64,000 bases of DNA from a virus: positions 4,652 to 68,651 of the IMG/VR virus record IMGVR_UViG_3300044824_000082; one strand, written 5' to 3'. A program made the translations under genes and the position numbers. Under the pieces are notes generated by a model, which was given only the letters and a program-made list of their open reading frames with translations, did no database searches and was not told where the DNA came from. Position 1 is the first letter of the stretch. Each line of letters opens with the position of its first letter. Of the stretch, positions 5,650 through 64,000 are shown in pieces.

Positions 5650-8514
5650 ATGCCGTCTAATGACGGCACGGCGGTAGTTCGCGGTACGGGGGTAGCCACA
5701 CTATCGGCGGCGATTACAACAGCGGCTGGCCCCGACTTCTTGTTTGTTGGCGCGGTAACGACGTTGCTAAGCGGCACCGTCACGTCGATTTCTTCGGTTC
5801 CGTCATTAACGTGGACAAAAGCGGCGGGGGTAGTCACCGGAACCACGGCGGCAACGTACGTTGATACCGAACTCTGGTGGTCGTCGCAGAAGGCAGCGGG
5901 AGCCGCAACCGTTACAGTAGTGTTCTCGGGAGCGGGAAGCTGCACGGCGATGATATGGGCCGTTAACGGGGGCGGGAACAGTTCGAATCCGTTTGACCCC
6001 GGCGCTTCGGCCCTCGTAACAGCGGCAGGAACCGGCACGGCAGTTACGGCCACAGTGACATCAACGAACCCAAGTGCGATGTTTATTGGGGTGGTTGGAG
6101 TCAACGGTGCGGACACGTTAACTGCCAAGACGGGGTTTTCAACCACAGTCGCAGCGTTCAGTACTATCCCAGCAGGGTTCGTTGAGTGGAATAACAGTGC
6201 AACGATTCGCTCGGCCTTTGCGGTAACAGCAACGGTTTCGTCTTCGGCTCAGTGGGGTATCATTGCGGCGGTGCTTCTGGGCACTCGTGGCGGCAGCGGA
6301 AAGTTGGCCGGCGCGGCTTCGGTAGTTAACAGTCATCAGGCAGTGACGGGTGCCGGCACGTTCCATAGTTCAGTTTCGGTAGTAGCGAACGCGAAAGGGA
6401 CGGGGGCGGGAACAGAGCACGGAGCGGGAACCGTTCAGACGCTTGTGCAAAAACTGAACGGCGCGGGAACGCTTGCCGGGACGCACGCGCTACTTACGTC
6501 TCAGCGTGGAACCGGCGCGGGCACGTTCCATACTACGGTATTGGTAGTTGCCAACGCATCTCACGCGGGTGCAGGCACGTTGGCCGGAACGCACTCACTG
6601 ATAACCAGTCAGACTGGAAAGGGTGCGGGCACACTGGCAGGTACGCACAGTTTGACGAATGCCCATCAAGCAAAGAGCGGGACGGGGATACTTGCTGGTA
6701 CGCATAGTCTAACGAATTCGCATCAGGCGGAAAGTGGTGCGGGTACATTGGCGGGTACTCATTCGTTGGTTTCGTCCCAAAAAGAAACGGGAGAAGGGCA
6801 ATTCGCCGGCACACATAGTTTGTTGTCCAGTCAGAAAGAGACTGGTGCGGGTACGGAGGCAGGGACACATTCGTTACTGGTTTCGCAAAAGAAGTCGGGA
6901 GGAGGACAGTTCGCGGGGACGCACTCGGCGCTCACGTCTCAGAAAGGGGTTGGTGCGGGACAACTTGCGGGTACGCACACGTTGTTAACCAATCAAAAAG
7001 AGGCCGGTGAGGGGCAGTTCGCCGGGACTCATACGCTTAAGACAAGCCAAGTTGAGGCTGGCGAAGGACAGTTTGCTGGAACCCACGCGCTCAAGACAAG
7101 TCAGGTGGAGAAAGGAGCGGGTACGTTTGCTGGCACGCATGCGTATCTCGCGTCTCAGAAAGAGACAGGCGAGGGGCAGTTTGCGGGTACTCACAGTTTG
7201 GTTAACAGTAAGCAGGCGGTAACGGGTGCGGGTACGCTGCATTCTTCGGTAGCGGTGGTTGTCAGTGAAAAGGGAACTGGGGAGGGGCAGTTCGCCGGGA
7301 CTCATACGCTTAAGACAAGCCAAGTTGAGGCTGGCGAAGGCCAGCTTGCCGGAACCCACACGTCCAAGACCAGTCAGGTTGAAGCCGGAGAAGGAAGGTT
7401 TGCAGGCACCCATACGATAAGCACCTCGCAAGTCGAGGCGGGTGAGGGACGGTTCGCCGGCACCCACACCACCATCGTATCGGGGAAGGCAACGGGAACG
7501 GGGACGTTGCACGGTGCGGGTGTTGCTTCGGGAGCGAGTGCAGGTGTTGCGACAGGTGCCGGAACCCTGCACGGTGCGGTTACAAGTAAGGTAGCGAGTG
7601 GTAAGGCGTCAGGCGCGGGGACAGAGCACGGTGCGGCAACGACAGCGGCTTCGCATCAGGCTGAAGCGGGAGAAGGTCAGTTTGCCGGGACCCATACCAC
7701 CGTGTTCAGTCAGGCGGCGAAAGGCACAGGCACGTTCCACGGTTCGGTGGCGGTGGTCGCGTCTGGTAAGGGGGTAGGAGCCGGAACCGAACATGGCGCT
7801 GCGACAATCGTAAGCCACCAGTCGAAGGCGGGAACGGGTACAGAAGCCGGCGCGGTTACAGGTGCGATTGCCAGCGGAAAAGGGACTGGGGCCGGAACAG
7901 AGCATGGCAGTGTCACGGCGGTGGCGAACGGGAAAGGTATCGGGACTGGAACCGAGCACAGCACCGTTGGTGTAGTGGCGAATGGCAAGGGGTCCGGTGC
8001 GGGGGCTTTGTACAGTTCGGTAACTGTAAAGGCAAACGGATTGGGCGCTGGAACCGGGGCGGAGCGCGGCTCGGTTGCGGTAGTAAGCCATCAGTCCAAG
8101 AGCGGCGCAGGAAGCGAACAGGGCGCGGGAACGGTTGTAAGTCATCAGTCGAAGCCGGGTTCCGGAACCGAACACGCGGCAGTCACGGCGATAGCAAGTG
8201 GAAAAGCGGCGGGAGAGGGACGTTTCGCCGGGGCGTCACAGTTCAGTGAAGCGGCGGTTGCCAGTGGAGAAGGGAGGTTCTCGACAGCCGTTTACGCGAG
8301 CCAGTATCCGCCTGTGCCAGTCAAGGGAACCTGTGGGTTCGGTTCGGCGGTGCTGGTCACGTCTATGAGTCCGACTGGGCGGGAAGTGCTCGGGGTAGTG
8401 AAGGAATCGGGAGGAGTCAGTTCTGTGGGGCAAGAGGTGTCGCCGGGAGTGTTCCAGTTCTTCATTAACGGGAAACCGTACGCGTATTATCACAACGTAC
8501 AGGGGTTGCCATGA
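5650..8514 (+). CDS. long repeat-containing fibre/adhesin-like virion protein (954 aa)
   Basis: many ~18-aa GxG(Q/T)(F/L)AGTH..SQ repeats; beta-rich N-domain; shared C-terminal domain. Confidence 0.75.
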   Translation: MPSNDGTAVVRGTGVATLSAAITTAAGPDFLFVGAVTTLLSGTVTSISSVPSLTWTKAAGVVTGTTAATYVDTELWWSSQKAAGAATVTVVFSGAGSCTAMIWAVNGGGNSSNPFDPGASALVTAAGTGTAVTATVTSTNPSAMFIGVVGVNGADTLTAKTGFSTTVAAFSTIPAGFVEWNNSATIRSAFAVTATVSSSAQWGIIAAVLLGTRGGSGKLAGAASVVNSHQAVTGAGTFHSSVSVVANAKGTGAGTEHGAGTVQTLVQKLNGAGTLAGTHALLTSQRGTGAGTFHTTVLVVANASHAGAGTLAGTHSLITSQTGKGAGTLAGTHSLTNAHQAKSGTGILAGTHSLTNSHQAESGAGTLAGTHSLVSSQKETGEGQFAGTHSLLSSQKETGAGTEAGTHSLLVSQKKSGGGQFAGTHSALTSQKGVGAGQLAGTHTLLTNQKEAGEGQFAGTHTLKTSQVEAGEGQFAGTHALKTSQVEKGAGTFAGTHAYLASQKETGEGQFAGTHSLVNSKQAVTGAGTLHSSVAVVVSEKGTGEGQFAGTHTLKTSQVEAGEGQLAGTHTSKTSQVEAGEGRFAGTHTISTSQVEAGEGRFAGTHTTIVSGKATGTGTLHGAGVASGASAGVATGAGTLHGAVTSKVASGKASGAGTEHGAATTAASHQAEAGEGQFAGTHTTVFSQAAKGTGTFHGSVAVVASGKGVGAGTEHGAATIVSHQSKAGTGTEAGAVTGAIASGKGTGAGTEHGSVTAVANGKGIGTGTEHSTVGVVANGKGSGAGALYSSVTVKANGLGAGTGAERGSVAVVSHQSKSGAGSEQGAGTVVSHQSKPGSGTEHAAVTAIASGKAAGEGRFAGASQFSEAAVASGEGRFSTAVYASQYPPVPVKGTCGFGSAVLVTSMSPTGREVLGVVKESGGVSSVGQEVSPGVFQFFINGKPYAYYHNVQGLP
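7009..7340 (+). repeat. exact 59-bp direct repeat (7009-7067 and 7282-7340) inside the repeat protein
   Basis: GAGGGGCAGTTCGCCGGGACTCATACGCTTAAGACAAGCCAAGTTGAGGCTGGCGAAGG occurs twice, in frame. Confidence 0.85.
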
Positions 8515-8575: not shown

Positions 8576-10159
8576 ATGACGGTAGGGTTGGACGGCACGG
8601 TAATCGCACAAGCTAAGGCGGCGACTATCAAAGCCGCGCTGACGACTACGCAGGCGAACGATGTTATCATCTTTGTCGGAGTCTCGGCGGCAACGACAAC
8701 GATTACAGCGGTTGTTGCAACGGGATTGACTTTTACCCAGCGTTCGTCATCTTCGGTTGCAGCCGCGATGACAATGTCGGAGTGGTACGCGGTAGCCACC
8801 GGCGCGTTCAGTAACACGATTACTGCTACGTTTAGCGCGTCTGGAACTGTTTCGATTATCGCGTTTGGTGTTTCGGGCGCGAATACCACGGCGCTGTTCG
8901 ATTCGAATGCGGCCCTGCCGAACTGGGCATCAGTCACGGCGGCTTCGATTACGGGCACAATTTCAACGTCGTTCCCGAATGATTTTGTTTTTCAGGTAGT
9001 TGGAAACCAGGTTACTGAAGCAACAGCCACGGTGCCGGCGGGTTTCTCGACTATTGAAGTCAGCGCGGGGACAATGGGGCCGCAGGGTGCCTATGAGATT
9101 CCTTCGACAACGCTGAGTGTCAGTACTGCCAAGTGGAAGTTCCCGACGTCGCGCGGGCTGATGATTCTGTCGGACGCGTTGCAGCCGCTTACCCAGCCGA
9201 AAGGTGGGGCAGGAACAGAAGCGGGGACGCACACGCTTTTGACTTCGCAGGCAGAAACCGGCGCAGGGCAGTTGGCCGGTACACATTCTTTGGCTTCGAA
9301 TTTGAATAAGGCCGGTGCGGGGCAGCTTGCGGGAACTCATGGATTGGTTTCCAGTCAGGTAGAGAGCGGAGAGGGACAGCTTGCGGGTACTCACACGCTG
9401 AAATCCAGTCAGGTTGAAACGGGCGAGGGTTCGTTAGCGGGGACGCATAGTTTGGTTTCGTCGCAAAAGAAATCCGGCGGAGGAAGTCTTGCTGGGACTC
9501 ATAGTGCCATTGCGGGAAACCCTGTCAGCGGAGAGGGCAGACTCGCAGGTACGCACACTTTGTTAACGTCCCAGAAGGAAACTGGTGCGGGGGCACTTGT
9601 CGGAACGCACGGGTTAGTGTCAAGTCAAAAAGAGGGTGGTGCGGGAAGTCTTGCGGGAACTCACGTTCTCAAAGTGAGTCAAGTCGAGGCAGGCACAGGT
9701 AGTTTGGCGGGGACACACAGTTTGTTGTCCAGCCAAAATGAGACTGGCGAAGGGCGATTTGCTGGTACTCACGGCGCTGTTGCTTCGGGGAAAACGATTG
9801 GTGAAGGCCAGTTGGCGGGAAGCGGTACCGCGGCAAGCATTTCAAAGGTCGCAGGAGCAGGAACGTTCCACGCTACCGCGAAGGAGGTAGCCAGTCAGCG
9901 CGTGGTTGGAAGCGGGGCGCTCACAGGAACGTATCAGATTGTAAAGCCCGTAGTGGGGAGGGGCGGGTTCGGGTGTAAGGTTACGCTGTTCGCGTTTGCG
10001 GGAGCTTCGCAGGTACCGTATGCAGCGCGTCAGGAGTCAGGAGGGGTTACGGAACCAACGCTGGACATTTCGGGAGGAATCTACGCGTTCAACGTGAACG
10101 TGTTGACGAATCCGATTACGGGCGGATTGCCGCCGCCAGATGGAGGGAATGCTAAATGA
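8576..10159 (+). CDS. paralogous repeat-containing virion protein (527 aa)
   Basis: same architecture as 5650 with fewer G(Q/S)LAGTH repeats. Confidence 0.75.
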   Translation: MTVGLDGTVIAQAKAATIKAALTTTQANDVIIFVGVSAATTTITAVVATGLTFTQRSSSSVAAAMTMSEWYAVATGAFSNTITATFSASGTVSIIAFGVSGANTTALFDSNAALPNWASVTAASITGTISTSFPNDFVFQVVGNQVTEATATVPAGFSTIEVSAGTMGPQGAYEIPSTTLSVSTAKWKFPTSRGLMILSDALQPLTQPKGGAGTEAGTHTLLTSQAETGAGQLAGTHSLASNLNKAGAGQLAGTHGLVSSQVESGEGQLAGTHTLKSSQVETGEGSLAGTHSLVSSQKKSGGGSLAGTHSAIAGNPVSGEGRLAGTHTLLTSQKETGAGALVGTHGLVSSQKEGGAGSLAGTHVLKVSQVEAGTGSLAGTHSLLSSQNETGEGRFAGTHGAVASGKTIGEGQLAGSGTAASISKVAGAGTFHATAKEVASQRVVGSGALTGTYQIVKPVVGRGGFGCKVTLFAFAGASQVPYAARQESGGVTEPTLDISGGIYAFNVNVLTNPITGGLPPPDGGNAK

Positions 10160-10341
10160 GCAGTACGAAAGGTTCGGGGAAATTTGGGACAACGGTGACG
10201 GTGTATGTAACTGGGCCTAACAGCGGGGACATTCCTATGTATGCCATCCAAGAGACGGCGGGAAAGACAGTTGTGGGGTTAGAGGTTTCGCCGGGGATTT
10301 ACATATTCAGCGGAGGGTACTACAGCGCGTTCACAGCGTAG
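10156..10341 (+). CDS. stand-alone copy of the C-terminal domain of the two upstream repeat proteins
   Basis: KGSGKFG..QETAG..GLEVSPGIYIF versus KGTCGFG..KESGG..GQEVSPGVFQF; ATGA overlap. Confidence 0.6.
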   Translation: MSSTKGSGKFGTTVTVYVTGPNSGDIPMYAIQETAGKTVVGLEVSPGIYIFSGGYYSAFTA

Positions 10342-22840: not shown

Positions 22841-22898
22841 GAAGGAAAGTATGAACACAAACCAAGATTTTAAATACCATGTTCTTCCTATTAATACC

Positions 22899-23504
22899 AT
22901 GCCATCTGGAATCTATCAGCGTACGCCGGAGCAGTTAGAAAGACTTCGAGAAGCGGGACGAAAGTTGGGTTCGGTTCAGGGCCCGAAGAATGCTAAGTCT
23001 GGCAGATTTCAGTCTGTTGAGTGGAAAGAGCGGGCGGCTCGACAGGGGCGAAAGAACGTTGAATCCGGGCTTTTGGAGCGGATTAGTCTGCCGTCACGGT
23101 TCAAGAAAGGCGAGATAAGAACGACAGCGCAGCGTGAGGCGAGTGCACGGGGCGGTGTGAAGACGATGCTCAAGATTCGCGGGCGTCAGGGGCCCAATGA
23201 AGAAGAGAAGCGGCTTCGTGCAGAATTGGATAAGTTGGGGATTGAGTTTAAACCGGAAGTGTATTTGGGTGATGGTATGGGAATTGCAGATGTGGTAGTT
23301 GGGAAGGTTGTGGGTGAGTTGGACGGCGGCGGGCATTGGGTAAATTTCGCGCGCAAGAAAGGGGTTACTGACGAAGAATATCGTTGCGGAATCGCGGCCA
23401 AAGACGCGAGACATGACAAGCGCAGGAGGCATAATGGTTACGTCGTGATTCGGGATTCGGACCCGATTCGATTGGCGAACAGGATTAAGGAGGTAGTACA
23501 ATGA
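22899..23504 (+). CDS. PD-(D/E)xK (Vsr/DUF559-like) homing-type endonuclease
   Basis: MPSGIYQRTPE N-terminus, basic repeats, ADVV..ELDGGGHW..KDARHD; own TTTTAAATA box; paralogue of 39264. Confidence 0.75.
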   Translation: MPSGIYQRTPEQLERLREAGRKLGSVQGPKNAKSGRFQSVEWKERAARQGRKNVESGLLERISLPSRFKKGEIRTTAQREASARGGVKTMLKIRGRQGPNEEEKRLRAELDKLGIEFKPEVYLGDGMGIADVVVGKVVGELDGGGHWVNFARKKGVTDEEYRCGIAAKDARHDKRRRHNGYVVIRDSDPIRLANRIKEVVQ

Positions 23505-31753: not shown

Positions 31754-31790
31754 GAAAGGTTTAAGTAGGCAGGAATAGGTAGATGTCTCG

Positions 31791-31859
31791 ATGACTGATA
31801 CGTATCGAGACTTGGTAATTACGGACGACAAGAATCGTCATCAAGTCTATTATACTTAG
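31791..31859 (+). pseudogene. orphaned 5' stub of the prohead protease gene
   Basis: encodes MTDTYRDLVITDDKNR, identical to the first 16 aa at 32416, then stops; keeps an AAAGGTTTAAGTAGGCAGG promoter. Confidence 0.9.
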
Positions 31860-31893: not shown

Positions 31894-32382
31894 ATGCCAC
31901 CCTTCAAAGATTTAACCGGACAGCGATTCGGCAGACTGGTAGTTGTTAGGTTTGTGGGAAGAGAACGATACAAAGGCGCACTTTGGAATTGTAAGTGCGA
32001 TTGTGGGAAAGAAAAAGTCGTTCGTGGTGGAAGTTTGGGGTTGGGAAAAACGAAATCGTGCGGGTGTTTGCAACGAGAGAATGGGGCCACTGTTGGGCAT
32101 TCTCGTTGGAAAGGCGGGAAGACATCGGACGGGTATGTTCAGATACAGCGGGATGGCAAGCATTTGTTGGAACATCGGATTGTTATGGAGCGGTATCTCG
32201 GGCGGAAACTTTTGGAGGGGGAGAACGTCCATCACAAGAACGGGATTCGAAACGACAACCGAATTGAGAATCTGGAACTGTGGTCAACGTGGCAACCGAC
32301 AGGACAACGAGTCGAAGACAAAACCGAATGGGCAATCAGGTGGCTGAAGCAGTACAAACCCGAAGTGATGAGGGGGCCGTAA
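31894..32382 (+). CDS. HNH homing endonuclease
   Basis: DLTGQRFGRL..WNCKCDCG..KSCGC; EHRIVME..VHHKNGIRNDNRIENLELW. Confidence 0.92.
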   Translation: MPPFKDLTGQRFGRLVVVRFVGRERYKGALWNCKCDCGKEKVVRGGSLGLGKTKSCGCLQRENGATVGHSRWKGGKTSDGYVQIQRDGKHLLEHRIVMERYLGRKLLEGENVHHKNGIRNDNRIENLELWSTWQPTGQRVEDKTEWAIRWLKQYKPEVMRGP

Positions 32383-35277: not shown

Positions 35278-35315
35278 AACGGGCCTTTAAATAGGACGCA
35301 AACCCATATATTTAC

Positions 35316-35696
35316 GTGGAATCGAAATTGGTTCAGCGCGGTAGAAAGGGTTCATCGAAATTCCGAGATTTCCGGTTGACTCAAAGGCGCAGAGGAGTGA
35401 GAAAGAGTCAGCGTGAGTATTTCTTGAAGTCGAAGTACGGTTTGACTATTGCGGCATGGGAAGCTCTTTTCGAAGGGCAGGGAAGGGCCTGTGCAATTTG
35501 TTGTTCAAAATCTGCACGCGGTAAAGCGGGTGTGGGTTGGTGTACGGACCATGACCACGAAACAGGTGAGGTGCGTGGAATCATCTGTCAACCTTGTAAT
35601 TTGTTGGTTGGTTGGATTGAGAAAAGTGCCTGTCCCGAAGAAATTGCGGTAAGGGTGATGAAATATTTAAATCAGGCAAGGTTGCGGAAGGTATAA
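35316..35696 (+). CDS. endonuclease VII-like HNH nuclease
   Basis: KYGLT..QGRACAIC..DHDHETGEVRGIICQPCN. Confidence 0.9.
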   Translation: MESKLVQRGRKGSSKFRDFRLTQRRRGVRKSQREYFLKSKYGLTIAAWEALFEGQGRACAICCSKSARGKAGVGWCTDHDHETGEVRGIICQPCNLLVGWIEKSACPEEIAVRVMKYLNQARLRKV

Positions 35697-37636: not shown

Positions 37637-38383
37637 ATGGTATTCGAAGTAATCGACACCCCCGAAAAGGCATGGTTGTTAGGTTGGATTGCAACTGACG
37701 GGAACGTTGACAGGTATCAAGTCAGGATTATCCTGAAAGATGGCGACAGTGAACGTTACGTTTGTGACGAGTTCGTAAAGGTGGCCGGCGGCAAAGTGTT
37801 CTTGCGCGAAAAGACAAATGGGAAAGTAGAGCATTACAAGACGGTTACGTGGGAATTGAACGGGGTTGAAGAGTGTGAGAATCTCGTCAAACTTGGGATT
37901 GGCCCAAAGAAGTCATTGGTATTGGGTAAAGTGGCTGTTCCAGAACAGCTCCTTTGGCACTTCGTTCGTGGAGTGTTTGAGGGCGATGGTAGCGTTTGGC
38001 TGACAACGCAAACGGGGCGCGGCAGGCCGCAAATCTCGATTACAAGCGGCAGTAAAGTGTTCGCAGAATGGGTAGCCGAGATTACGGGCGGGAAGTTGTA
38101 TCCGAAGGAGAAGCCCCGGCGGAACACGTCGTACAGCATCGAGTTCGGCAACCGCGAGGTAATCGAGGCGTTTTACAAGCGGGCCTACGCAGACGCGGGT
38201 GAGTTCGTTCTTTTGCGAAAGAAGCAGAAGATTGAAGAGGGGCTCGGAGCATATTTCAGTTCTGAAGAGCGCGGTGAAATTGGACGGCAGAACGCAGTTC
38301 CGTGGGTAGAACAGTTCACGAAGAAGCACGGCATGAGTCCGATTGAGTGGAATCTGAAGAAAGGGGCGGGCCAATCACCTTAA
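37637..38383 (+). CDS. two-motif LAGLIDADG homing endonuclease
   Basis: AWLLGWIATDG and FVRGVFEGDGS; KKSL; LLRKKQK. Confidence 0.9.
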   Translation: MVFEVIDTPEKAWLLGWIATDGNVDRYQVRIILKDGDSERYVCDEFVKVAGGKVFLREKTNGKVEHYKTVTWELNGVEECENLVKLGIGPKKSLVLGKVAVPEQLLWHFVRGVFEGDGSVWLTTQTGRGRPQISITSGSKVFAEWVAEITGGKLYPKEKPRRNTSYSIEFGNREVIEAFYKRAYADAGEFVLLRKKQKIEEGLGAYFSSEERGEIGRQNAVPWVEQFTKKHGMSPIEWNLKKGAGQSP

Positions 38384-38408
38384 ATACACCCGAATCTTAC
38401 CCCAAATC

Positions 38409-38652
38409 ACGGAGGGATGGGGAGGGTAACAGCTACACAGCGCTGTGGAGTAACACCGCAGAACGGGAAAGGACCCGGTGCGGCCCGTGTGTTCGGGCTT
38501 ACCCCGGGAGAAACTGCTCTGTGCCACGGTGTATGTCCGGGGGTAGTGCCCGGCCTCCTCTACCTTTACGAACAAACTGGGAGTATGATGGCGTGTCGTG
38601 GTTGCTTGATTCACCCTAAGCGCGGCTATATGTAGTCGCCTGCGGGTTGTTT
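38409..38652 (+). ncRNA. putative structured non-coding RNA
   Basis: TATA-like CTTAAATA at ~38379 with no ATG at the usual spacing; several helices foldable by eye; no convincing ORF. Confidence 0.4.
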
Positions 38653-38656
38653 AACT

Positions 38657-39100: not shown

Positions 39101-39146
39101 CGGGCTCACACTTTAAATACTCTGTAGTCTTACCCTAATCACGACC

Positions 39147-39224
39147 ATGAACGCGGACGAGCTAAGAGTGGCGCTGGAAAGCCTTCGCGCCGAACGCGGC
39201 GATGGGACAGTTCTTGTCTCGTAG
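39147..39224 (+). pseudogene. orphaned 5' stub of the release factor gene
   Basis: MNADELRVALESLRAERGDGTVLVS* matches 15/25 aa of the aRF1 N-terminus at 39861; has its own TTTAAATA promoter. Confidence 0.85.
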
Positions 39225-39263
39225 CTCCAAGAATTTAAATACGCGGTTAACCCTAAATCTCCC

Positions 39264-39857
39264 ATGCCAAAGGGAGTTTACGTTCGTTCACCAGAATACT
39301 TGGCAGCTTTGAATGAAGCATTTCGCAAGCGCAGCTTGAATCCAGAGTGGCAAGAACAGCATAGGAAACAAGTAGACGCATTGAACGCCTCGCCAGAACA
39401 TCGCGAACATCTTAGAAGGATTCACGCCGACCCGGCCATACGAGAGAAGATGGGTGGGCGTGGGAAGGTGGGAGGGGCTATTGTTGGACGGAGAAACGTT
39501 GAGACGGGATTTTTGGACAAGATTCGGCCTCAAGCTGTAGTAGCGTCCAGAAGGGGATTGAAACCCACAGAGCCAGAAAAGATTGTCAGAGACAAGCTGG
39601 GCGCATCGTGGCGGTACACGGGTGATAACTCGTTCGCTATCGTTACCAAGCGGCATACAAGGTATCCAGATTTTGTCAACGAAAAGGAGCGTAAGTGTAT
39701 TGAAGTCTTTGGTAATTACTGGCACAGTAGAAAGTGGTTTCCAGAACGTGAAGCACCAGAGGACAAGATAGCCGAATACGCGGAAGTTGGTTGGCAGTGC
39801 GAAGTCGTTTGGGAGAAGGACGTTAAGAAATGGCTTCCAGCAAACTGTTCGGAATGA
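39264..39857 (+). CDS. PD-(D/E)xK (Vsr-like) homing-type endonuclease
   Basis: MPKGVYVRSPE; PTEPE..YPDF..IEVFGNYWH..VVWE; paralogue of 22899. Confidence 0.8.
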   Translation: MPKGVYVRSPEYLAALNEAFRKRSLNPEWQEQHRKQVDALNASPEHREHLRRIHADPAIREKMGGRGKVGGAIVGRRNVETGFLDKIRPQAVVASRRGLKPTEPEKIVRDKLGASWRYTGDNSFAIVTKRHTRYPDFVNEKERKCIEVFGNYWHSRKWFPEREAPEDKIAEYAEVGWQCEVVWEKDVKKWLPANCSE

Positions 39858-39860
39858 ACC

Positions 39861-40874
39861 ATGCAAACAGACGAGTTGAGAAAGATAGTAGAGGTGCTGC
39901 GCGGTATGGAAGGAGACGGCACTACGTTAGTGTCGTACCTTGTAATGCCGAAGCGTTCCATAGCCGACGCCCGTGCCCGATTGGCGCGGGAAGTCGTAGA
40001 AGCCGAGAACATCAAGCTTCACAGCACACGACACGCTGTCGTAGCCTCGCTAACCAAGGCCCTGACAGCGGCCCGAGGCATGTCAGAAACCCCCGAGAAC
40101 GGTGTCGCGCTTTACGCCTCACCCACGGATACATGGCTCATCGAGCCACCCGAACCGATTCAGGCGAACGTGTATCGGTGCGGGAGCGAGTTCGTCTTGG
40201 AGCCGTTGGAGGCGATGCTGGCCTCGAAGGAGGTGTTCGCGTTGATAGTGATAGACAGGCAGGAGGCCACGTTGGGTTGGTTGCGGGGCAGTGCCATCGA
40301 AGAGGTGGCCTATTTCGAGTCCCGCGTGATGGGCAAGCACGATGCGGGCGGGCAATCGCAGCACCGCTTCGAGCGGCAAATAGAGCATCAGGCACACGAG
40401 TTCTTTGTGAAGGTGGCGGAGGCGGCAACGCAGGCTTTCGTGGACAAGAAGCTCACAGCCGTGGCAGTGGGAGGCCCGGGAGCCACGAAGGAGTTCTTTG
40501 TGAAGGAAGGGTATCTGGACTACAGACTGCAAGAAAAGGTGCTCCCTGCGTTTAATGTGGGGTACACGAACGAGGCGGGTTTGCGGGAACTGGCGCTAAA
40601 AGTAGAGGCACATCTGCCTGCGTTGGTGAGCGCCAAAGAGCGGGTGCTCCTGCAAGGGTTCTTTGCGGCGATTCGGGACGGCCGTGCAGCGTACGGCAAG
40701 GAACAGATTGCCCGGGCGATTGCGGAAGGGCGGGTAGAGAGTTTGATTCTGTCGCACGGGGTTCCGGTGCCAGCGGGATACAGTGGAGAGGTTCAGCGAG
40801 TCGGAGAGGCCGGGGACGAGGCGGCGGCGTTCAAGAAAGGCTTCGGTGGAATCGGCGCTTTGTTACGGTACTAA
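39861..40874 (+). CDS. prf1: archaeal-type class-1 peptide chain release factor (aRF1/eRF1)
   Basis: GTT (GTS loop), NIKL, PENG, YRCGSEF (YxCxxxF), KHDAGGQSQHRFER (GGQ), GGPG, FGGIGALLRY. Confidence 0.95.
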   Translation: MQTDELRKIVEVLRGMEGDGTTLVSYLVMPKRSIADARARLAREVVEAENIKLHSTRHAVVASLTKALTAARGMSETPENGVALYASPTDTWLIEPPEPIQANVYRCGSEFVLEPLEAMLASKEVFALIVIDRQEATLGWLRGSAIEEVAYFESRVMGKHDAGGQSQHRFERQIEHQAHEFFVKVAEAATQAFVDKKLTAVAVGGPGATKEFFVKEGYLDYRLQEKVLPAFNVGYTNEAGLRELALKVEAHLPALVSAKERVLLQGFFAAIRDGRAAYGKEQIARAIAEGRVESLILSHGVPVPAGYSGEVQRVGEAGDEAAAFKKGFGGIGALLRY

Positions 40875-42133: not shown

Positions 42134-42216
42134 GGCCCGGTGGGTCAGTCAGGAACGCCGCCGCGCTCAAGACGCGGTGTAGTAGTACAGCGCCGGTTCA
42201 AATCCGGCCCGGGCCA
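42134..42216 (+). tRNA. tRNA-Leu(CAA)
   Basis: cloverleaf; CCGCG-CT CAA GA-CGCGG; long variable arm; GTTCAAATC. Confidence 0.9.
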
Positions 42217-42330
42217 CTGTCGTATGGTATTGAACAGTGGGGTGCCCGAGCCAGTGTGCCAGCAGAGTGCATATCGTGAGTGGTATGACAGGGATAATGC
42301 AAGGATGGAGCGGAGGTATGGGCGATATAC

Positions 42331-42406
42331 GGGCCTGTAGTGGCAAATTTGGAAGAACGCCTGTTTCGCAAACAGGGGGTTCCGGGTTCGAATCCCGGCG
42401 GGTCCA
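42331..42406 (+). tRNA. tRNA-Ala(CGC)
   Basis: CCTGT-TT CGC AA-ACAGG; G3.U70. Confidence 0.93.
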
Positions 42407-42550
42407 TTCATTGGTGAAGGAAATGGGCGAAATCGTGCGGAATTGGAATCCAGAAAACAAGTCGTACGATGAGATGGCTCCGTGGGAGAAGGTGGAGAAC
42501 AACGTTTGGGCGGCTCGGTATGAACGGTTGTGTTTGAGGTTGATAGATGC

Positions 42551-42623
42551 GGGCTCGTAGTGGCAATGGAAGAACACTTCGTTGGCATCGAGGAGGTTGC
42601 GAGTTCGATTCTCGCCGGGTCCA
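42551..42623 (+). tRNA. tRNA-Ala(GGC)
   Basis: CTTCG-TT GGC AT-CGAGG; G3.U70. Confidence 0.92.
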
Positions 42624-42624
42624 T

Positions 42625-42697
42625 GACAGGGAAGCGCTCCGGGATGTGTTCGGGGTTCATACCCCCGAGGTTGGAGGTTCGACTCCTCCCTCTGTCA
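42625..42697 (+). tRNA. tRNA-Met(CAT), initiator-like anticodon stem
   Basis: CGGGG-TT CAT AC-CCCCG with consecutive G-C pairs; A8/U14. Confidence 0.85.
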
Positions 42698-42775
42698 TTT
42701 CATGGTTCACCCGCGATGAAGACGCCCCGATGTACACGGGTGCGGTGCGTGACTTTGTGGAACGGGTGGGCACAT

Positions 42776-42849
42776 GCTCCATTGGGGTAAATTGGGAAGC
42801 CTCGCAGGTTCTCGCCCTGTGGATGTGGGTTCGAATCCCGCATGGAGCA
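42776..42849 (+). tRNA. tRNA-Glu(CTC)
   Basis: GCAGG-TT CTC GC-CCTGT; acceptor GCTCCAT/ATGGAGC. Confidence 0.92.
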
Positions 42850-42853
42850 CCTT

Positions 42854-42926
42854 GCCCGCGCAGTCCGTACGGAACGGATTCTGCCCTGTCACGGCGGAGG
42901 AGTGGGTTCAATTCCCACCGTGGGCG
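42854..42926 (+). tRNA. tRNA-Asp(GTC)
   Basis: CTGCC-CT GTC AC-GGCGG; C8/G14; G73. Confidence 0.9.
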
Positions 42927-42931
42927 TCCGT

Positions 42932-43006
42932 GGGTTCGTGGCGCAAATAGGATAGCGCAAGGGCCTCTTAAGCCCGAGGTTGTGGGTTCAAGTCCCACCG
43001 AGCCCG
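42932..43006 (+). tRNA. tRNA-Lys(CTT)
   Basis: AGGGC-CT CTT AA-GCCCG. Confidence 0.92.
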
Positions 43007-43008
43007 TT

Positions 43009-43083
43009 GGGCTTGTGACTCAGCTTGGACACAGTGCCGCCCCGCGAAGGCGGAAGTCGAGGGTTCAAATCCCTCCAAGCCCG
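43009..43083 (+). tRNA. tRNA-Arg(GCG), C33
   Basis: CCGCC-CC GCG AA-GGCGG. Confidence 0.88.
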
Positions 43084-43084
43084 T

Positions 43085-43158
43085 GCGCTCGTAGCTTAAA
43101 CGGAGAGAGTGCCCGCCTCCTAAGCGGGGCGATACGAGTTCGATTCTCGTCGAGCGCG
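43085..43158 (+). tRNA. tRNA-Arg(CCT)
   Basis: CCCGC-CT CCT AA-GCGGG. Confidence 0.92.
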
Positions 43159-43159
43159 T

Positions 43160-43236
43160 GCACCTGTCGCCTAACTCGGATATGGCGCCACGCTTCGAAC
43201 GTGGAACGATTGCGGGTTCGAATCCCGTCAGGTGCG
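43160..43236 (+). tRNA. tRNA-Arg(TCG)
   Basis: CCACG-CT TCG AA-CGTGG. Confidence 0.92.
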
Positions 43237-43241
43237 TGTAT

Positions 43242-43323
43242 GGCGGAGTGGCTCAGTGTTGACGGCGCGGGCCTTAGAAGTCCGTACGAGGAAACAACGC
43301 AGGTTCAAATCCTGCCTCCGCTA
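43242..43323 (+). tRNA. tRNA-Leu(TAG)
   Basis: CGGGC-CT TAG AA-GTCCG; extended variable region. Confidence 0.85.
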
Positions 43324-43324
43324 C

Positions 43325-43396
43325 AGCCCGATAGTGTAGTGGCGCGCATGGGAACCCTACAAGTTCTCGGTGGGAGTTCAATTCTCTCTCGGGCTA
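43325..43396 (+). tRNA. tRNA-Val(TAC), C33
   Basis: GGAAC-CC TAC AA-GTTCT; acceptor AGCCCGA/TCGGGCT. Confidence 0.82.
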
Positions 43397-43398
43397 TT

Positions 43399-43471
43399 CC
43401 TCACGTAGTTCAATCGGTAGAACACCGGCCCGTAGAGCCGGGTGTTGCTGGTTCAAATCCGGCCGTGGGGA
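43399..43471 (+). tRNA. tRNA-Tyr(GTA), C33
   Basis: CCGGC-CC GTA GA-GCCGG; C1-G72 and short variable loop (archaeal/eukaryal Tyr identity). Confidence 0.9.
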
Positions 43472-43472
43472 C

Positions 43473-43543
43473 GCGTCCATCAGTCAGTGGTAGGCTCCCG
43501 CATCGCCAGTGCGGTGACTCGGGTTCGATTCCCGGTGGGCGCA
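43473..43543 (+). tRNA. tRNA-Gly(GCC), C33
   Basis: CCGCA-TC GCC AG-TGCGG; GCG acceptor start; A73. Confidence 0.9.
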
Positions 43544-43544
43544 T

Positions 43545-43712
43545 ATGAACGAGGAAGAGAGAACGAAATTAGAAGAGGAGTTCCCGATTGTAGACTGTAA
43601 AGGGTGCGGGCATTGTACATGTGCCCATGAACACAGTACAGGAAAATGTCATCTGGTTTGGTGGGACATGAAAGACATGTTAAGGTGTGACTGTCAGGAA
43701 TTCGTTCTATGA
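43545..43712 (+). CDS. small Zn-finger protein inside the tRNA array (not in ORF track)
   Basis: MNEEERTKLEEEFPIVDCKGCGHCTCAHEH..KC..CDCQEFVL; same module as 1584. Confidence 0.55.
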   Translation: MNEEERTKLEEEFPIVDCKGCGHCTCAHEHSTGKCHLVWWDMKDMLRCDCQEFVL

Positions 43713-43715
43713 AGC

Positions 43716-43787
43716 GCGTCCAAGGTGTTGACAGTGACATATCGGGCCTCCAACCCGAAGTACGGGGCGCACGTCCCCGTGGGCGCA
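43716..43787 (+). tRNA. tRNA-Gly(TCC), C33, non-canonical T-loop
   Basis: TCGGG-CC TCC AA-CCCGA; T-arm CGGGG-CGCACGT-CCCCG. Confidence 0.8.
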
Positions 43788-43790
43788 TAT

Positions 43791-43865
43791 GCCACCGTAG
43801 CGAAGTCCAGACATCGCGCCCGCCTCGTAAGCGGGAGTTCGCCGGAGCGAAGCCGGCCGGTGGCT
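43791..43865 (+). tRNA. tRNA-Thr(CGT), non-canonical T-loop
   Basis: CCCGC-CT CGT AA-GCGGG; T-loop AGCGAAG; U73. Confidence 0.85.
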
Positions 43866-43869
43866 TTAT

Positions 43870-43955
43870 GGACGGGTGGCCCAATCAGGAAAGGCGTCCG
43901 CCTCGAAAGCGGATTCTCAGCGATGAGAGTGGGGGTTCAAATCCCCTCCCGTCCG
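43870..43955 (+). tRNA. tRNA-Ser(CGA)
   Basis: TCCGC-CT CGA AA-GCGGA; long variable arm; G73. Confidence 0.92.
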
Positions 43956-43958
43956 TTC

Positions 43959-44030
43959 GCCGGCTTAGCCTAACAGGAGGGCGCCACCCTGAAGAGGTGG
44001 AGATTGGCGGTGCAAGTCCGCCAGCCGGCA
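43959..44030 (+). tRNA. tRNA-Phe(GAA)
   Basis: CCACC-CT GAA GA-GGTGG; T-loop TGCAAGT. Confidence 0.88.
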
Positions 44031-44032
44031 TT

Positions 44033-44105
44033 GGGCGTGGAGCTAATCAGCAGAAGCGCGTGTCTGATACACACGAAGTAGGAGGGGCGGCACCTCCCGC
44101 GCCCA
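44033..44105 (+). tRNA. tRNA-Ile(GAT), non-canonical T-loop
   Basis: CGTGT-CT GAT AC-ACACG; T-loop GGCGGCA; G8. Confidence 0.82.
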
Positions 44106-44108
44106 TGT

Positions 44109-44180
44109 GCCGAGGTAGCTCAGTAGCAGAGCACTCGACTGTTAATCGAGTACGCGAAGGTGCAAGTCCTTCTCTCGGCG
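44109..44180 (+). tRNA. tRNA-Asn(GTT)
   Basis: CTCGA-CT GTT AA-TCGAG; T-loop TGCAAGT; G73. Confidence 0.9.
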
Positions 44181-44181
44181 T

Positions 44182-44267
44182 GGAGGGATGGCCCAGTTGG
44201 CTACGGCGCGGGTTTGCTAAGCCCGTTTCGCGGAAGCGATTCGCCGGTTCGAATCCGGCTCCCTCCG
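44182..44267 (+). tRNA. tRNA-Ser(GCT)
   Basis: CGGGT-TT GCT AA-GCCCG; long variable arm. Confidence 0.92.
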
Positions 44268-44268
44268 T

Positions 44269-44339
44269 GTCGTCCGGGCAGGACAGCCATGCGGGGGCCC
44301 GCAGAGCCTCAGAACCCGGTGCAACTCCGGGGGACGACT
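44269..44339 (+). tRNA. tRNA-Cys(GCA), C33
   Basis: GGGGC-CC GCA GA-GCCTC; U73; T-loop TGCAACT; G8. Confidence 0.82.
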
Positions 44340-44530
44340 TGTGCCCAAAGTGCGGACACGTTCATTCGTTCTTGTCAGGGAAGTGTAACACTGTCTTGGA
44401 TAGATGGTTTGAGTGTGGGTGTCAAGGATGACGACGGACACGATAGTGACGGTAGTGGTGATTGGGATTCTTGCGGCGTGGATTACGTTCGTGATTCGTT
44501 ACTGGTCTAAGTTCATGGAGTGGTTGGAAT

Positions 44531-44905
44531 ATGAAGCTCCCGATTAAGGAACACAAAAGCAAGCACCCTGCGAGTGATGTCAAGACGGCGTCACTGATGG
44601 CCTTCGTGGTGCGGCGGGGGAAGGTAGTGACGGTGGGTTACAATCGAAGGGTGTTTCCGAACGGAGAGGCGTTCTCCCAGCACGCGGAGGAAGCGGCGCT
44701 CAAGAAGGCGGGAAGTCGGGCGAAGGGAGCCACGCTGTACGTGCTTCGGTTCAAGAAGGACGGTAGCCGTGGGATGGCGCGTCCCTGTGGACGGTGCCAC
44801 GACACGTTGAATCGGGCGGGAATCGTGCGGGTGTTCTTTTCGCTGGACAACGTGGACAGGTGGGGAAAGTTGATATGGCAGAACGCACAATGGATAGAGG
44901 TATAG
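44531..44905 (+). CDS. Zn-dependent cytidine/dCMP/tRNA deaminase-superfamily protein inside the tRNA array
   Basis: GYN, HAEEAAL (HxE), ATLYV, ARPCGRC (PCxxC); stop codon overlaps tRNA-Gln. Confidence 0.9.
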   Translation: MKLPIKEHKSKHPASDVKTASLMAFVVRRGKVVTVGYNRRVFPNGEAFSQHAEEAALKKAGSRAKGATLYVLRFKKDGSRGMARPCGRCHDTLNRAGIVRVFFSLDNVDRWGKLIWQNAQWIEV

Positions 44906-44977
44906 CGCCGTGGAGTAGCTGGACAAGCCCACCCGGCTCTGACCCGGGAGACAGAGGTTCGAATCCTCTCGGCGCTA
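44904..44977 (+). tRNA. tRNA-Gln(CTG)
   Basis: CCCGG-CT CTG AC-CCGGG; A1-U72 (archaeal Gln identity). Confidence 0.92.
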
Positions 44978-44984
44978 TCCTTAC

Positions 44985-45059
44985 GGGCGTGTCGTCTAAT
45001 CTGGTTCAGGATAGCTGGCCCCAGACCAGCAGATGTCGGTTCAAATCCGGCCTCGCCCA
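44985..45059 (+). tRNA. tRNA-Trp(CCA), C33
   Basis: GCTGG-CC CCA GA-CCAGC; one acceptor mismatch. Confidence 0.82.
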
Positions 45060-45061
45060 TC

Positions 45062-45136
45062 GGGCGTGTCGCCTATTGGGATGGCACCTGTCTTATAAGC
45101 TGGACAAAGGAGCGAGTTCGATTCTCGTCACGCCCA
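45062..45136 (+). tRNA. tRNA-Ile(TAT)
   Basis: CCTGT-CT TAT AA-GCTGG (one U.U mismatch); acceptor GGGCGTG as in Ile(GAT); 8-nt variable region. Confidence 0.75.
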
Positions 45137-45140
45137 TTGT

Positions 45141-45213
45141 GGGGCTGTGGTGTAACTTGGAAGCATCCGGCGCTCGGAACGCCGAGGTACAGGTTCAAAT
45201 CCTGACAGTCCCA
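45141..45213 (+). tRNA. tRNA-Pro(CGG)
   Basis: CGGCG-CT CGG AA-CGCCG; GGGGC acceptor start. Confidence 0.9.
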
Positions 45214-45547
45214 TTATGAGCGAACTGAAGTGGAGGACGTGTCAGAAGTGCGGCGAGGAACACGTCTTTTCCAGTGAATTGAGATGCGTGAGTTGTCGAG
45301 CGGCGCCCTTGCTCAAGCGGCTCAAGGAACTCGGGTGGGAGAACGGTGTGATTTACGTGGACGGGCTTCCGGTTGGGAAGAAGGCTTAAATAGAAGTGGA
45401 GATGTGATGAGGAGAATGAGTGTGTGTCCGGTTTGCGCGAGGCCAAGTCAAGAGAAAGTTCTGAGCGAGCCTGCAATGGTGCAGCTTTCTTGTGGTCATG
45501 TAGTGCACGAAGGAAAGGTTAAGTAGTCGTGCGGTGATTTGAAAAGC

Positions 45548-59928: not shown

Positions 59929-60088
59929 CTATATATGGGCGGGCGTTTGGAAGGAGAAGCGCGGTTGGGCGTGGAAGATAGAGGACAGGAACCGATGGAA
60001 GACGTGGGGCGGCAGCGGGTTCCAGTCAAGAGACGCGGCGAAAGAAAACATGGATGAAGTCTTGAGGGGGTTGAAAGTCGAACTATGA
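59900..60088 (+). CDS. hypothetical Trp-rich small protein
   Basis: GGAGGTG SD; ORF track. Confidence 0.5.
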   Translation: MGLKQAKGNSYIWAGVWKEKRGWAWKIEDRNRWKTWGGSGFQSRDAAKENMDEVLRGLKVEL

Positions 60089-60453
60089 CAAGCAATGTGG
60101 AAGCGGTGCACAAGTATCGTAGCAAGCACCGCGATTACGTGCGGCAGAGCCAGCGTGAGTATATCGAAAAGAATCGAGAAGAGCTTTGGCAACGCCGACG
60201 AGAAGTTAAGTACGAAGCATTGATGATGTTAGGCGGAAAGTGCACAGGGTTTGAACGTCCATGCGGAATCACCGACATAGATGTTCTTGAAATAGACCAC
60301 GTCATCCCAGTAAATGGAAAGAGAACCGATGCGAGGGGAACATCGTTTCATCGAAAGATTAGAGCAGGCAAGGTTCCTCTTGACAATTTGCAGATTCTGT
60401 GTGCAAACTGTCACAGTCGAAAGACAATAGCGGAAAGAAGGAAAGAAGCATGA
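60085..60453 (+). CDS. HNH endonuclease
   Basis: LGGKC..C..LEIDHVIP..NLQILCANCHSRKT. Confidence 0.88.
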   Translation: MTSNVEAVHKYRSKHRDYVRQSQREYIEKNREELWQRRREVKYEALMMLGGKCTGFERPCGITDIDVLEIDHVIPVNGKRTDARGTSFHRKIRAGKVPLDNLQILCANCHSRKTIAERRKEA

Positions 60454-63085: not shown

Positions 63086-63678
63086 ATGGGCATAGGATTA
63101 GCGGAAACGGCCCTAGAAACGATTCTGGCGTGGCACCCCCTATCGGGACACCCCCTTCCGAACCGAGCATCCTAACGCGTAGTGGGCAGACGTTCTATTA
63201 CGAGCGCCCCGATGATTTCGAGTATTCGTTGGCGGACATCGGCTACGCGCTCGGAAATCTTTGCCGGTATGCCGGGCACACCGGGTGGTGGTCCGTGGCG
63301 CAGCACAGTTTGTTGGTGGCATGGTTGGCGGAACCGAAAGACAAGCTTCGGGCGTTGTTGCACGATGCTTCGGAGGCGTTCTTGGTGGACGTTCCCGGGC
63401 CGCTTAAGCGAATGGAATGCATGGCGGGGTATCGGGAGCTTGAGAGTAAGGTTATGCGGGCGATTCATCGGCAGTTCGGCATCCCCGAAGACGTAGAAGC
63501 GGAGAAGCGGGTGAAGCAAGCGGACATTCTGGCGTATGAGATGGAGTCCAAGTATCTCGGGCGGGGCAACGGGTACAGTGAGTTGTCGCTCGTCATCCCG
63601 GAAGAGATTAGGCGGATGAACCGGGCGGAGTCTCAGTACGAGTTCGAACGGATGGCAATTTGGTTGATGAGTCAATGA
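63082..63678 (+). CDS. HD-domain hydrolase (YfbR/YfdR-like 5'-deoxynucleotidase family)
   Basis: CRYAGHT..SVAQHS, LLHDASEAFLVDVPGPLK, VKQAD..E. Confidence 0.88.
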   Translation: MNGHRISGNGPRNDSGVAPPIGTPPSEPSILTRSGQTFYYERPDDFEYSLADIGYALGNLCRYAGHTGWWSVAQHSLLVAWLAEPKDKLRALLHDASEAFLVDVPGPLKRMECMAGYRELESKVMRAIHRQFGIPEDVEAEKRVKQADILAYEMESKYLGRGNGYSELSLVIPEEIRRMNRAESQYEFERMAIWLMSQ

Positions 63679-64000
63679 CGTGGAGCAAGGCCAGTAGGGC
63701 ATGGTATTACAGAAACCAAGAAAAAGTGCGGCAGCAGCGGGCGCAATATCGGTTACAAGCAATGGAAATTCTCGGGGGAATTAAGTGCAGTTGGCCTAAC
63801 GGTTGTAATTGCGCAAATATTGATTTGCTTGAGATAGACCATGTTAAAGGTGGTGGAGACAAAGAGAGACGGTATAATGGGTTGCATGGTGGATGGGTTT
63901 TGGCCCGTGAAGTTGCGCAGGGAAGGTATCCAAAGGAGAAGCAAGCAAATTTGCGGGTTCTTTGCACGATGCATAATTGGCTTGCGCATGTAGAACGAAA
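63675..64000 (+). CDS. HNH endonuclease (runs off the window end)
   Basis: LGGIKCSWPNGC..LEIDHVKGGG..NLRVLCTMHN, translated by hand; same family as 1950 and 60085. Confidence 0.8.
   Translation, partial: MTWSKASRAWYYRNQEKVRQQRAQYRLQAMEILGGIKCSWPNGCNCANIDLLEIDHVKGGGDKERRYNGLHGGWVLAREVAQGRYPKEKQANLRVLCTMHNWLAHVER

Follow-up and report, generated by a model that had tools for sequence, protein, structure and literature searches.

The 64-kb stretch of DNA analysed here (the window) comes from the 68.6-kb IMG/VR virus record IMGVR_UViG_3300044824_000082, which is estimated to be 47% complete. At 39–41 kb it carries a gene for the archaeal class-I release factor aRF1 that is preceded by a free-standing endonuclease gene and, further upstream, by a second and displaced version of its own 5′ end, which we call the stub. 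We consider it likely that this locus is an end-replacement homing cassette that has settled inside the virus's own release-factor gene. The mobile unit would probably extend over ~39227–39940 and consist of a TATA box and leader of its own, a gene for a Vsr-like nuclease, and 80 nt of respelled aRF1 codons 1–26 (Table 1). The same layout recurs at two further genes of the window, in one case with a nuclease of an unrelated family.

Anatomy of the aRF1 locus

The promoter, stub, nuclease gene and release-factor gene that a preliminary description of this DNA had reported are all present (Table 1). Archaeal promoters carry the TATA box about 26–27 nt upstream of the start site, and the spacing of the first TATA box of the locus to the ATG of the stub implies a near-leaderless transcript. 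Directly 3′ of the stub lies CTCCAAGAATTTAAATAC. The hexamer CCAAGA is the left limit of similarity between this cassette and a paralogous Vsr-like cassette described below. If the cassette starts at CCAAGA, the homology of the stub to aRF1 may run two bases further than the stub itself (TAG CT versus TAC CT), in which case the TAG would be a point change and not the junction. At the other end of the nuclease gene the packing is tight, with the aRF1 ATG at 39861 only 3 nt after the nuclease TGA.

Table 1. Positions of the elements at the aRF1 locus and at the two other loci with the same layout (window coordinates)
Feature	Position	Strand	Remarks
TATA box TTTAAATA	39112–39119	+	read as the original aRF1 promoter, now driving the stub; ~27 nt 5′ of the stub ATG
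Stub, read as the displaced 5′ end of an aRF1 allele	39147–39224	+	25 codons and TAG; homology may reach 39226
Left end of the cassette, CCAAGAATTTAAATAC, and leader	39227–39263	+	own TATA box, TTTAAATA again, at 39234–39241; common to the paralogous cassette at 22862
Vsr-like (EDxHD-type) endonuclease gene	39264–39857	+	free-standing, apparently intact, 197 aa; ends in TGA
Replacement 5′ segment of aRF1	39861–39940	+	codons 1–26 and 2 nt; 53% DNA identity to the stub
Complete virus-encoded aRF1	39861–40874	+	337 aa; short form without the domain-3 insertion
Stub of the protease fusion gene	31791–31859	+	first 16 codons, peptide identical to the working copy; found by window-wide self-comparison
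HNH_3 homing-endonuclease gene	31894–32382	+	PF13392 at 2.2e-10; PHROG HNH families; between the protease stub and the working start
Second protease promoter copy and recoded first 16 codons	32383–32463	+	ATG at 32416; continuous with the 954-aa gene ending at 35277
Possible PTPS mini-stub	22851–22861	+	ATG and 2–3 codons (M-N-T), preceded by a Shine-Dalgarno-like GGAAGG; continues in frame into the paralogous nuclease without a stop
Paralogous Vsr-like cassette	22862–23504	+	CCAAGAWTTTAAATAC left end, 36-nt leader, nuclease gene 22899–23504

The stub is identical to residues 1–25 of aRF1 at 15/25 positions, as had been described, with an ungapped BLOSUM62 score of 68. This match withstands a shuffle control: when 5000 shuffled versions of the stub were scanned along the whole of aRF1, the mean score was 14.1 and the highest 41, so that none attained 68. 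Of all 25-residue windows in the six-frame translation of the 64 kb, only aRF1 itself matches the aRF1 start better than the stub does, and the window ranked below the stub scores 40. Compared with the N-termini of 113 cellular aRF1 homologues, the stub has a mean identity of 7.2/25 and the resident N-terminus one of 5.5/25; homologue by homologue, the stub scores higher in 81 cases, lower in 23 and the same in 9, the 113 homologues not being mutually independent. The swapped segment ends 3–5 residues past the G-T-x loop of aRF1 domain 1, which agrees with the earlier remark that the exchanged N-terminus lies near the GTS loop.

At the DNA level, the stub and the resident 5′ end are identical at 41/78 nt, and their identity is distributed unevenly over the codon (14, 18 and 7 of 25 at the first, second and third positions, which correspond to 11, 7 and 18 differences; chi-square ~9.9 with 2 degrees of freedom by our own arithmetic). 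The proportion of synonymous differences, pS, is 0.87 and that of nonsynonymous differences, pN, is 0.35. The bias in codon position indicates that the divergence accrued under protein-level selection in both copies, before they were juxtaposed. The pattern means that both 5′ ends belonged to working genes for most of their divergence and that recombination of diverged genomes placed them next to each other. They come from functional alleles of separate lineages and are not an in-place duplicate.

A tandem duplication of the aRF1 5′ end, in which the upstream copy decayed where it stood and a nuclease gene arrived between the two copies independently, is for the same reason highly improbable. 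Direct partial duplications do arise by replication slippage, and the stub runs collinear with, and in the same direction as, the resident copy. A dead copy, however, should diverge evenly over the three codon positions, in contrast to the 11, 7 and 18 differences in 25 codons seen here and to the 0 nonsynonymous versus 10 synonymous differences at the protease locus described below. The third positions are almost saturated, yet the stub has retained its ATG, its frame and its promoter. Furthermore, a nuclease gene would have to land between two such copies three separate times.

Base composition bears on which of the two 5′ ends came with the cassette. The stub and the aRF1 body have GC contents of 0.61 and 0.60, whereas the replacement 5′ segment and the nuclease gene have 0.51 and 0.50; GC content at third codon positions is 0.49–0.55 in all three nuclease genes of this layout versus 0.62–0.75 in their neighbours. 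These values point to the stub as native and to the resident 5′ segment as cassette-borne, an indication that is suggestive only for segments of 75 nt. We infer that the stub, and not the resident N-terminus, is the native one.

The 337-aa open reading frame (ORF) downstream of the nuclease is, on its sequence, the archaeal class-I release factor aRF1. Pfam recognises eRF1_2 (1.8e-34), eRF1_3 (2e-9) and, weakly, eRF1_1 (0.055), and 194 aRF1 homologues were found, the named ones being called aRF-1. The protein carries GGQ and Y-R-C-G-S-E-F, with NIK-L substituting for NIKS and G-T-T for the G-T-S of the loop. Its domain 3 is devoid of the insertion seen in cellular forms of 404–430 aa. In the present layout aRF1 has neither a promoter nor a ribosome-binding motif of its own, so it is probably made from transcripts that start at the stub and nuclease promoters, by re-initiation 3 nt past the nuclease stop.

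The ORF between the stub and aRF1 had been described as a PD-(D/E)xK nuclease unrelated to the HNH family, and both profile and structure comparisons place it with Vsr. Although a single-sequence Pfam search gives Vsr at an E-value of only 0.0033, which does not pass the curated cut-off, a profile built from 36 homologues detects E. coli Vsr (1cw0, 1.8e-9) and, at 3.1e-5, the intron-encoded homing endonuclease I-Bth0305I through its catalytic domain (3r3p). A single-sequence search of the PDB with the nuclease returned chance matches only. The AlphaFold model of the protein (pLDDT 85.9) has 1vsr and 3r3p as its top Foldseek matches, with a probability of 0.99–1.00 and a TM(target) of 0.39–0.53. 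The nuclease contains the family-invariant residues E105, G120 and D136 and the near-invariant residues E147, H154 and E184, and in the alignment its D136 and H154 correspond to the PDF and WH motifs of Vsr. The catalytic assignment of such residues comes from the Vsr literature (PMC2677866, in the sections drawn on here). Since the invariant and near-invariant residues are all present, the nuclease gene looks intact.

Modular homing endonucleases typically carry NUMOD3 motifs. NUMOD3 is detected in 10 of the 36 aligned homologues and, by Pfam, not in the window protein, the N-terminal 95 residues of which are predicted to form helical repeats. An exhaustive search returned 2863 cluster representatives at E ≤ 0.001, which share a conserved C-terminal domain of ~100 residues and have variable N-termini; relatives occur in 64 IMG/VR contigs, and two further relatives, P0271 and P0272, are 49% and 37% identical to the window protein. 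By its profile and its modelled fold, the nuclease is thus a member of the Vsr-like (EDxHD) homing-endonuclease family, and it is predicted to cleave DNA site-specifically.

Combining these elements, we propose the following model for the origin of the locus. In a mixed infection, the nuclease would cut a cassette-free aRF1 allele about 26 codons into the gene, in the DNA that encodes the conserved G-x-G-T-x-L-V-S segment. The break would be repaired from the cassette-bearing genome, with the old promoter and codons 1–25 serving as the left homology and the aRF1 body as the right. The cassette would be copied in at the cut, and the 5′ end of the recipient gene would be severed from its body and left behind as a 25-codon stub. 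The recoded 5′ segment of the cassette would join the body seamlessly, leaving aRF1 whole without an intron or an intein. The nucleotide divergence of the replacement segment, together with the truncation of the stub at the site, would render the carrier genome immune to its own nuclease, and the unit may still be mobile.

Recurrence of the layout at two further genes

The preliminary description had held that an HNH gene elsewhere in the window follows the same strategy, and the succession of stub, nuclease gene and new start is indeed found there, at a gene that encodes a prohead-protease fusion protein (Table 1). The protease stub and the working copy are identical at 16/16 residues, with 0 nonsynonymous and 10 synonymous differences in 16 codons, and the promoter region upstream of the stub (about 31755–31790) is duplicated too, in near-identical form. 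At both the aRF1 and the protease locus, an endonuclease gene thus stands between a working gene and a displaced fragment of the same gene's end, and the working end and the displaced fragment derive from diverged alleles between which the protein is conserved.

The second further locus is that of a PTPS gene (PTPS match at 1.4e-22), the start of which overlaps the stop of a nuclease gene paralogous to that of the aRF1 locus (ATGA at 23501). The two nucleases are 30% identical in the self-comparison (E 7e-8) and 26% identical by BLASTP. Upstream of the paralogous nuclease, a mini-stub of 3–4 codons matches the M-N-T start of PTPS, which is suggestive of the same arrangement.

The two Vsr-like cassettes begin in the same way. 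The left-end motif CCAAGATTTTAAATAC / CCAAGAWTTTAAATAC has only 2 matches in the window versus 0.03 expected, and both are at these cassettes. In each of them (i) the target-derived sequence stops no more than three bases from the shared CCAAGA, (ii) a 36-nt leader is open in the nuclease frame, and (iii) the second base of a target codon is the last before the insertion, which places the target start in frame with the nuclease. For both cassettes to be in frame, the chance expectation is 1 in 9. This shared and precise left end favours a defined unit over separate repair scars.

A one-off scar would have formed if a free-standing nuclease gene located immediately 5′ of aRF1 in a donor virus had been copied in, together with the donor's aRF1 5′ end, by a single repair event, with an illegitimate or microhomology-mediated left junction and the stub as an accidental remnant. 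Such an origin is in keeping with the co-conversion of flanking markers that is the standard outcome of intronless homing, for example by T4 SegB and mobE in the accounts drawn on here, and with the results of the searches reported below, in which no second genome with the same cassette was found and distant family members in 64 viral contigs were without stubs. Nevertheless, three nuclease genes of two families show the layout in one 64-kb window. In both Vsr-like cassettes, moreover, the first base occupies the same position with respect to the promoter and abuts the target-derived sequence, which is unexpected for random illegitimate junctions, and both insertions follow the second base of a codon. 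We therefore regard a one-off scar as unlikely and retain the end-replacement cassette as the preferred explanation.

The reading frames invite a different interpretation, in which the layout is regulatory and the stub acts as a peptide or an upstream ORF, or else read-through of the TAG or TGA tunes the level of the nuclease or of the release factor. The stub, the nuclease and aRF1 start in one frame with one TAG and one TGA between them, as had been noted and as the stop-to-stop pieces 39225–39854 and 39858–40871 bear out; the paralogous nuclease is open in frame from the ATG of the mini-stub without an intervening stop (ORF 22851–23504); and the product of the downstream gene at the aRF1 locus is itself a release factor. 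Stop codons are nevertheless used normally in the window (36 TGA, 19 TAA and 12 TAG among 67 ORFs), with no recoding signal. The standard code gives a coding density of ~90%, to which reading any of the stops as sense adds at most 2% of covered bases, and the 22 tRNAs of the window include no stop anticodon or suppressor. The frames differ at the HNH locus, where the stub is in frame 0 and the nuclease and the new start are in frame 1, and the PTPS gene is out of frame with the paralogous nuclease. A triple shared frame arises by chance in 1 of 9 cases, and the searches reported below gave no conserved relatives that would show selection on the layout. A regulatory role is accordingly very unlikely, and the read-through feedback on release-factor levels that had been proposed earlier finds no support in stop usage, in the tRNA set or in the frames of the other two loci, where the shared frame is not repeated.

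Relatives, samples and genomic setting

Single-protein and alignment scans of IMG/VR yielded no relative of the window aRF1, and neither did single-protein scans of metagenome and genome collections or a tblastn search of 50,697 GenBank phage and archaeal-virus records. An alignment scan of metagenome contigs gave 12 aRF1 loci at 34–39% identity, all with ordinary full N-termini. Together with the corresponding scan of genome contigs, from which 80 of 343 loci were kept, it returned aRF1 homologues at no more than 43% identity.

The best two genome loci, L078 (5989–7011) and L079 (6052–7032), lie on contigs of Thermoplasmata metagenome-assembled genomes and have no nuclease and no stub. They encode short aRF1 paralogues (326–340 aa) that start right after the position of the G-T-S loop, do not comprise helix 1 and the loop, and adjoin very large surface-protein genes; these genes seem to be second, cellular copies of a gene for a release-factor-like protein. 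Truncated N-termini in the aRF1 homologues P0015, P0031 and P0103 had been considered as signs of a shared nuclease insertion site, and this was rejected after inspection of L078 and L079. The closest aRF1 protein, P0002 (80% identity), is recorded on 3 contigs and starts at a Met aligned with residue 74. In that relative, truncation or interruption may have struck the gene at another position; when proteins of 40–128 aa were searched with residues 1–73 of aRF1, no candidate for an N-terminal fragment partner emerged.

Five peat runs contain part of the stretch, and four of them were compared with it. Run X1, which is possibly the source sample, covers all of the 39–41 kb region examined identically. 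In an independent assembly, made with another assembler from a run that contains the stretch and may be the source sample, a contig spans 38701–41300 with zero differences. Runs X2–X4 contain only short identical pieces of the aRF1 body and of the sequence downstream. An assembly chimera, in which reads of two strains that occur together and differ in their aRF1 5′ ends were wrongly joined, could be entertained for a record that is a metagenome-assembled and incomplete fragment of a virus. However, the contig from the other assembler agrees with the record throughout, the stub and the resident copy are too divergent (53% DNA identity) to be misjoined, and the layout is present at three loci, which makes the probability of such an artefact negligible.

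Several results weigh against an end-replacement homing cassette. The scans described above found no relative of the aRF1 locus, either with or without a nuclease. The reads and contigs of four peat runs contain no joint that skips the cassette, a negative that has no bearing on cassette-free alleles. The PTPS mini-stub comprises 3–4 codons only and could be due to chance, and the GC argument is built on very short segments. A search of the flanks of a free-standing LAGLIDADG gene at 37637–38383 gave no stub hit of at least 18 bits, and the window-wide self-comparison revealed no stub beside this gene or beside an Endonuclease VII gene at 35316–35696. Finally, distant members of the nuclease family occupy 64 loci in IMG/VR, and a comparison of their flanks yielded no stub-and-start pair above a cross-locus null; apart from the repeat described next, the hits were of low complexity only. 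The layout is therefore not a general property of the nuclease family.

One of these loci deserves mention in its own right. On the low-GC viral contig L054, a member of the nuclease family is flanked by a 39-nt direct repeat with 95% identity (3378–3416 and 4490–4528). The upstream copy comprises the last dozen codons and the stop of the upstream gene, and the second copy starts at the nuclease stop and extends downstream. The repeat looks like a 3′-end duplication of the type known from WHO elements and mORFs, which are discussed below.

We read the window as part of a tailed archaeal virus, with the host assignment resting on several indirect indications. Nearly all genes are on the + strand, and among them are genes for a prohead protease, a tail tube protein and an HK97-gp10-like protein. 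Boxes of the archaeal type TTTAAATA occur 8 times in the window versus 1.02 expected. The runs that contain window sequence are peat metagenomes, and the nearest cellular homologues of the window aRF1 come from Thermoplasmata.

Downstream of the aRF1 gene, a block at 42134–45214 contains 22 tRNA genes detected by ARAGORN, with a weak extra Rfam match to tRNA at 42334–42402; small ORFs break up the block, including a dCMP/cytidine deaminase-like gene (44531–44905). An Rfam search of the window found tRNAs and no other RNA family. A virus-encoded aRF1 beside 22 tRNA genes constitutes a rare case of an archaeal virus with a translation-termination factor. Open-access keyword searches retrieved no paper on aRF1 in archaeal viruses, by which its absence from print is not established.

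Other free-standing nuclease genes are found in the head-gene block. The Endonuclease VII-domain ORF mentioned above has its own TTTAAATA box (35286–35293), and the LAGLIDADG ORF follows the putative major capsid gene. The latter is followed by a 270-nt spacer (38384–38656), which opens with a TTAAATA box, matches no Rfam family and contains a GC-rich and Cys-rich ORF of 72 codons (38417–38635). Elsewhere in the window, the small paralogous ORFs at 60085–60453, 1950–2378 and 63660–63998 share 29–38% mutual identity, and that at 60085 carries an HNH domain. An open frame at 10156–10338, just 3′ of a 527-aa gene (8576–10159), resembles the C-terminal 46 residues of that gene and also the C-terminus of its 954-aa paralogue at 5650–8514; it may represent either an extension reached by a frameshift or a 3′ end that was displaced.

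Relation to known homing elements

The closest parallels are with elements that replace the 3′ ends of genes, of which the present cassettes would be the mirror image. According to the parts of the original report drawn on here, the WHO elements of Torulaspora and Lachancea yeasts (Coughlan et al. 2020, eLife, PMC7282813) consist of an endonuclease gene beside an essential host gene, and homing replaces one end of that gene with a divergent and cleavage-resistant copy. The former end comes to lie beyond the endonuclease gene, where it is bounded by the cut site and represents a homology arm, and no splicing is involved (PMC7282813). All of this is akin to the aRF1 locus. The differences, on the same partial basis, are that (i) WHO elements replace the 3′ end, whereas here it is the 5′ end, in one case with a copy of the promoter, (ii) WHO nucleases are LAGLIDADG/intein-derived and carry a zinc finger, whereas those of the window are Vsr-like and HNH, (iii) WHO elements reside in eukaryotic nuclear genomes and act in meiosis, whereas the present cassettes are in an archaeal virus, and (iv) cleavage and allele-specific resistance were demonstrated by experiment for WHO elements, whereas here they are predicted from the layout of the locus.

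A similar exchange is known from the mORF gene hybrids of fungal mitochondria, in atp6 of Allomyces macrogynus and in atp6, atp9, cox2 and nad3 of Glomus, where, as far as the consulted part of the account goes, the mORFs carry a foreign C-terminus (Beaudet et al. 2013, PMC3630166). C-terminal duplications also occur beside LAGLIDADG/GIY-YIG ORFs (PMC6279837). As at the aRF1 locus, the endonuclease ORF brings in a foreign gene end, the native end stays nearby as a duplicate, and the ends differ by lineage (PMC3630166, same part). In mitochondria, however, it is the C-terminus that is replaced, and the mORF commonly forms an in-frame fusion with the host gene (PMC3630166, same part), whereas here the N-terminus is replaced and the nuclease gene, with its own promoter, lies upstream of the restored gene.

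The Vsr-like family itself was originally reported from free-standing genes that interrupt 'fractured' genes of phages (Dassa et al. 2009, PMC2677866). The family, including I-Bth0305I, shares its fold and motifs with the window nuclease, and the free-standing genes share with it their position inside a viral protein-coding gene. In the model put forward for fractured genes, the ends of the element likewise provide the stop of the upstream piece and the start of the downstream gene in a tightly packed arrangement (PMC2677866), for which the counterparts here are the 3-nt gap at aRF1 and the ATGA overlap at PTPS. The fractured host genes of that description, however, consist of two complementary pieces that are usually rejoined by a split intein (PMC2677866), whereas the downstream aRF1 is complete by virtue of its spare 5′ segment, which overlaps the stub in content, and the upstream piece is redundant. 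Pfam detects no intein domain in either the nuclease or the aRF1 ORF.

Intronless homing in T-even phages (SegB, SegF, SegG and MobE) is likewise comparable in that, in the accounts drawn on, a free-standing gene adjoins its target and spreads by break repair and co-conversion, and the carrier is immune through sequence differences at the site. In T4, intact genes flank the nuclease gene, which is not known to leave a displaced duplicate of the target's end, and this sets the aRF1 locus apart.

The kind of homing element proposed here is already known. What is new is that it would act at the 5′ end of a gene, in an archaeal virus, with Vsr-like and HNH nucleases, and on a release-factor target. 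Keyword searches of the open-access literature found end replacement by endonuclease genes only in fungal mitochondria and yeast nuclei, a result that does not establish its absence from print elsewhere.

If the cassettes are active, endonuclease genes would be able to colonise the interior of essential genes of archaeal viruses without introns or inteins, and a mechanism demonstrated for 3′ ends in yeast nuclei and fungal mitochondria would be widened to include 5′ ends, archaeal viruses and two additional nuclease families. Apart from the mechanism, stubs of this kind are prone to misannotation as small genes or upstream ORFs, and replaced ends render gene trees chimeric. The boundaries of a stub, on the other hand, directly predict the cut site of the nuclease, which helps to find new site-specific nucleases.

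A broader and more tentative proposal, which we regard as possible without favouring it, is that tailed viruses of archaea harbour a third class of homing element beside introns and inteins, made up of promoter-bearing cassettes with nucleases of unrelated families and recoded spare 5′ ends, which at aRF1 swaps the helix-plus-GT-loop module with a presumed role in the reading of stop codons. Were this so, insertion inside essential coding sequence would be possible without splicing, with the orphaned stub representing the left homology arm. The translation of aRF1 would be coupled to that of the nuclease, and homing would shuffle release-factor specificity modules among viruses.

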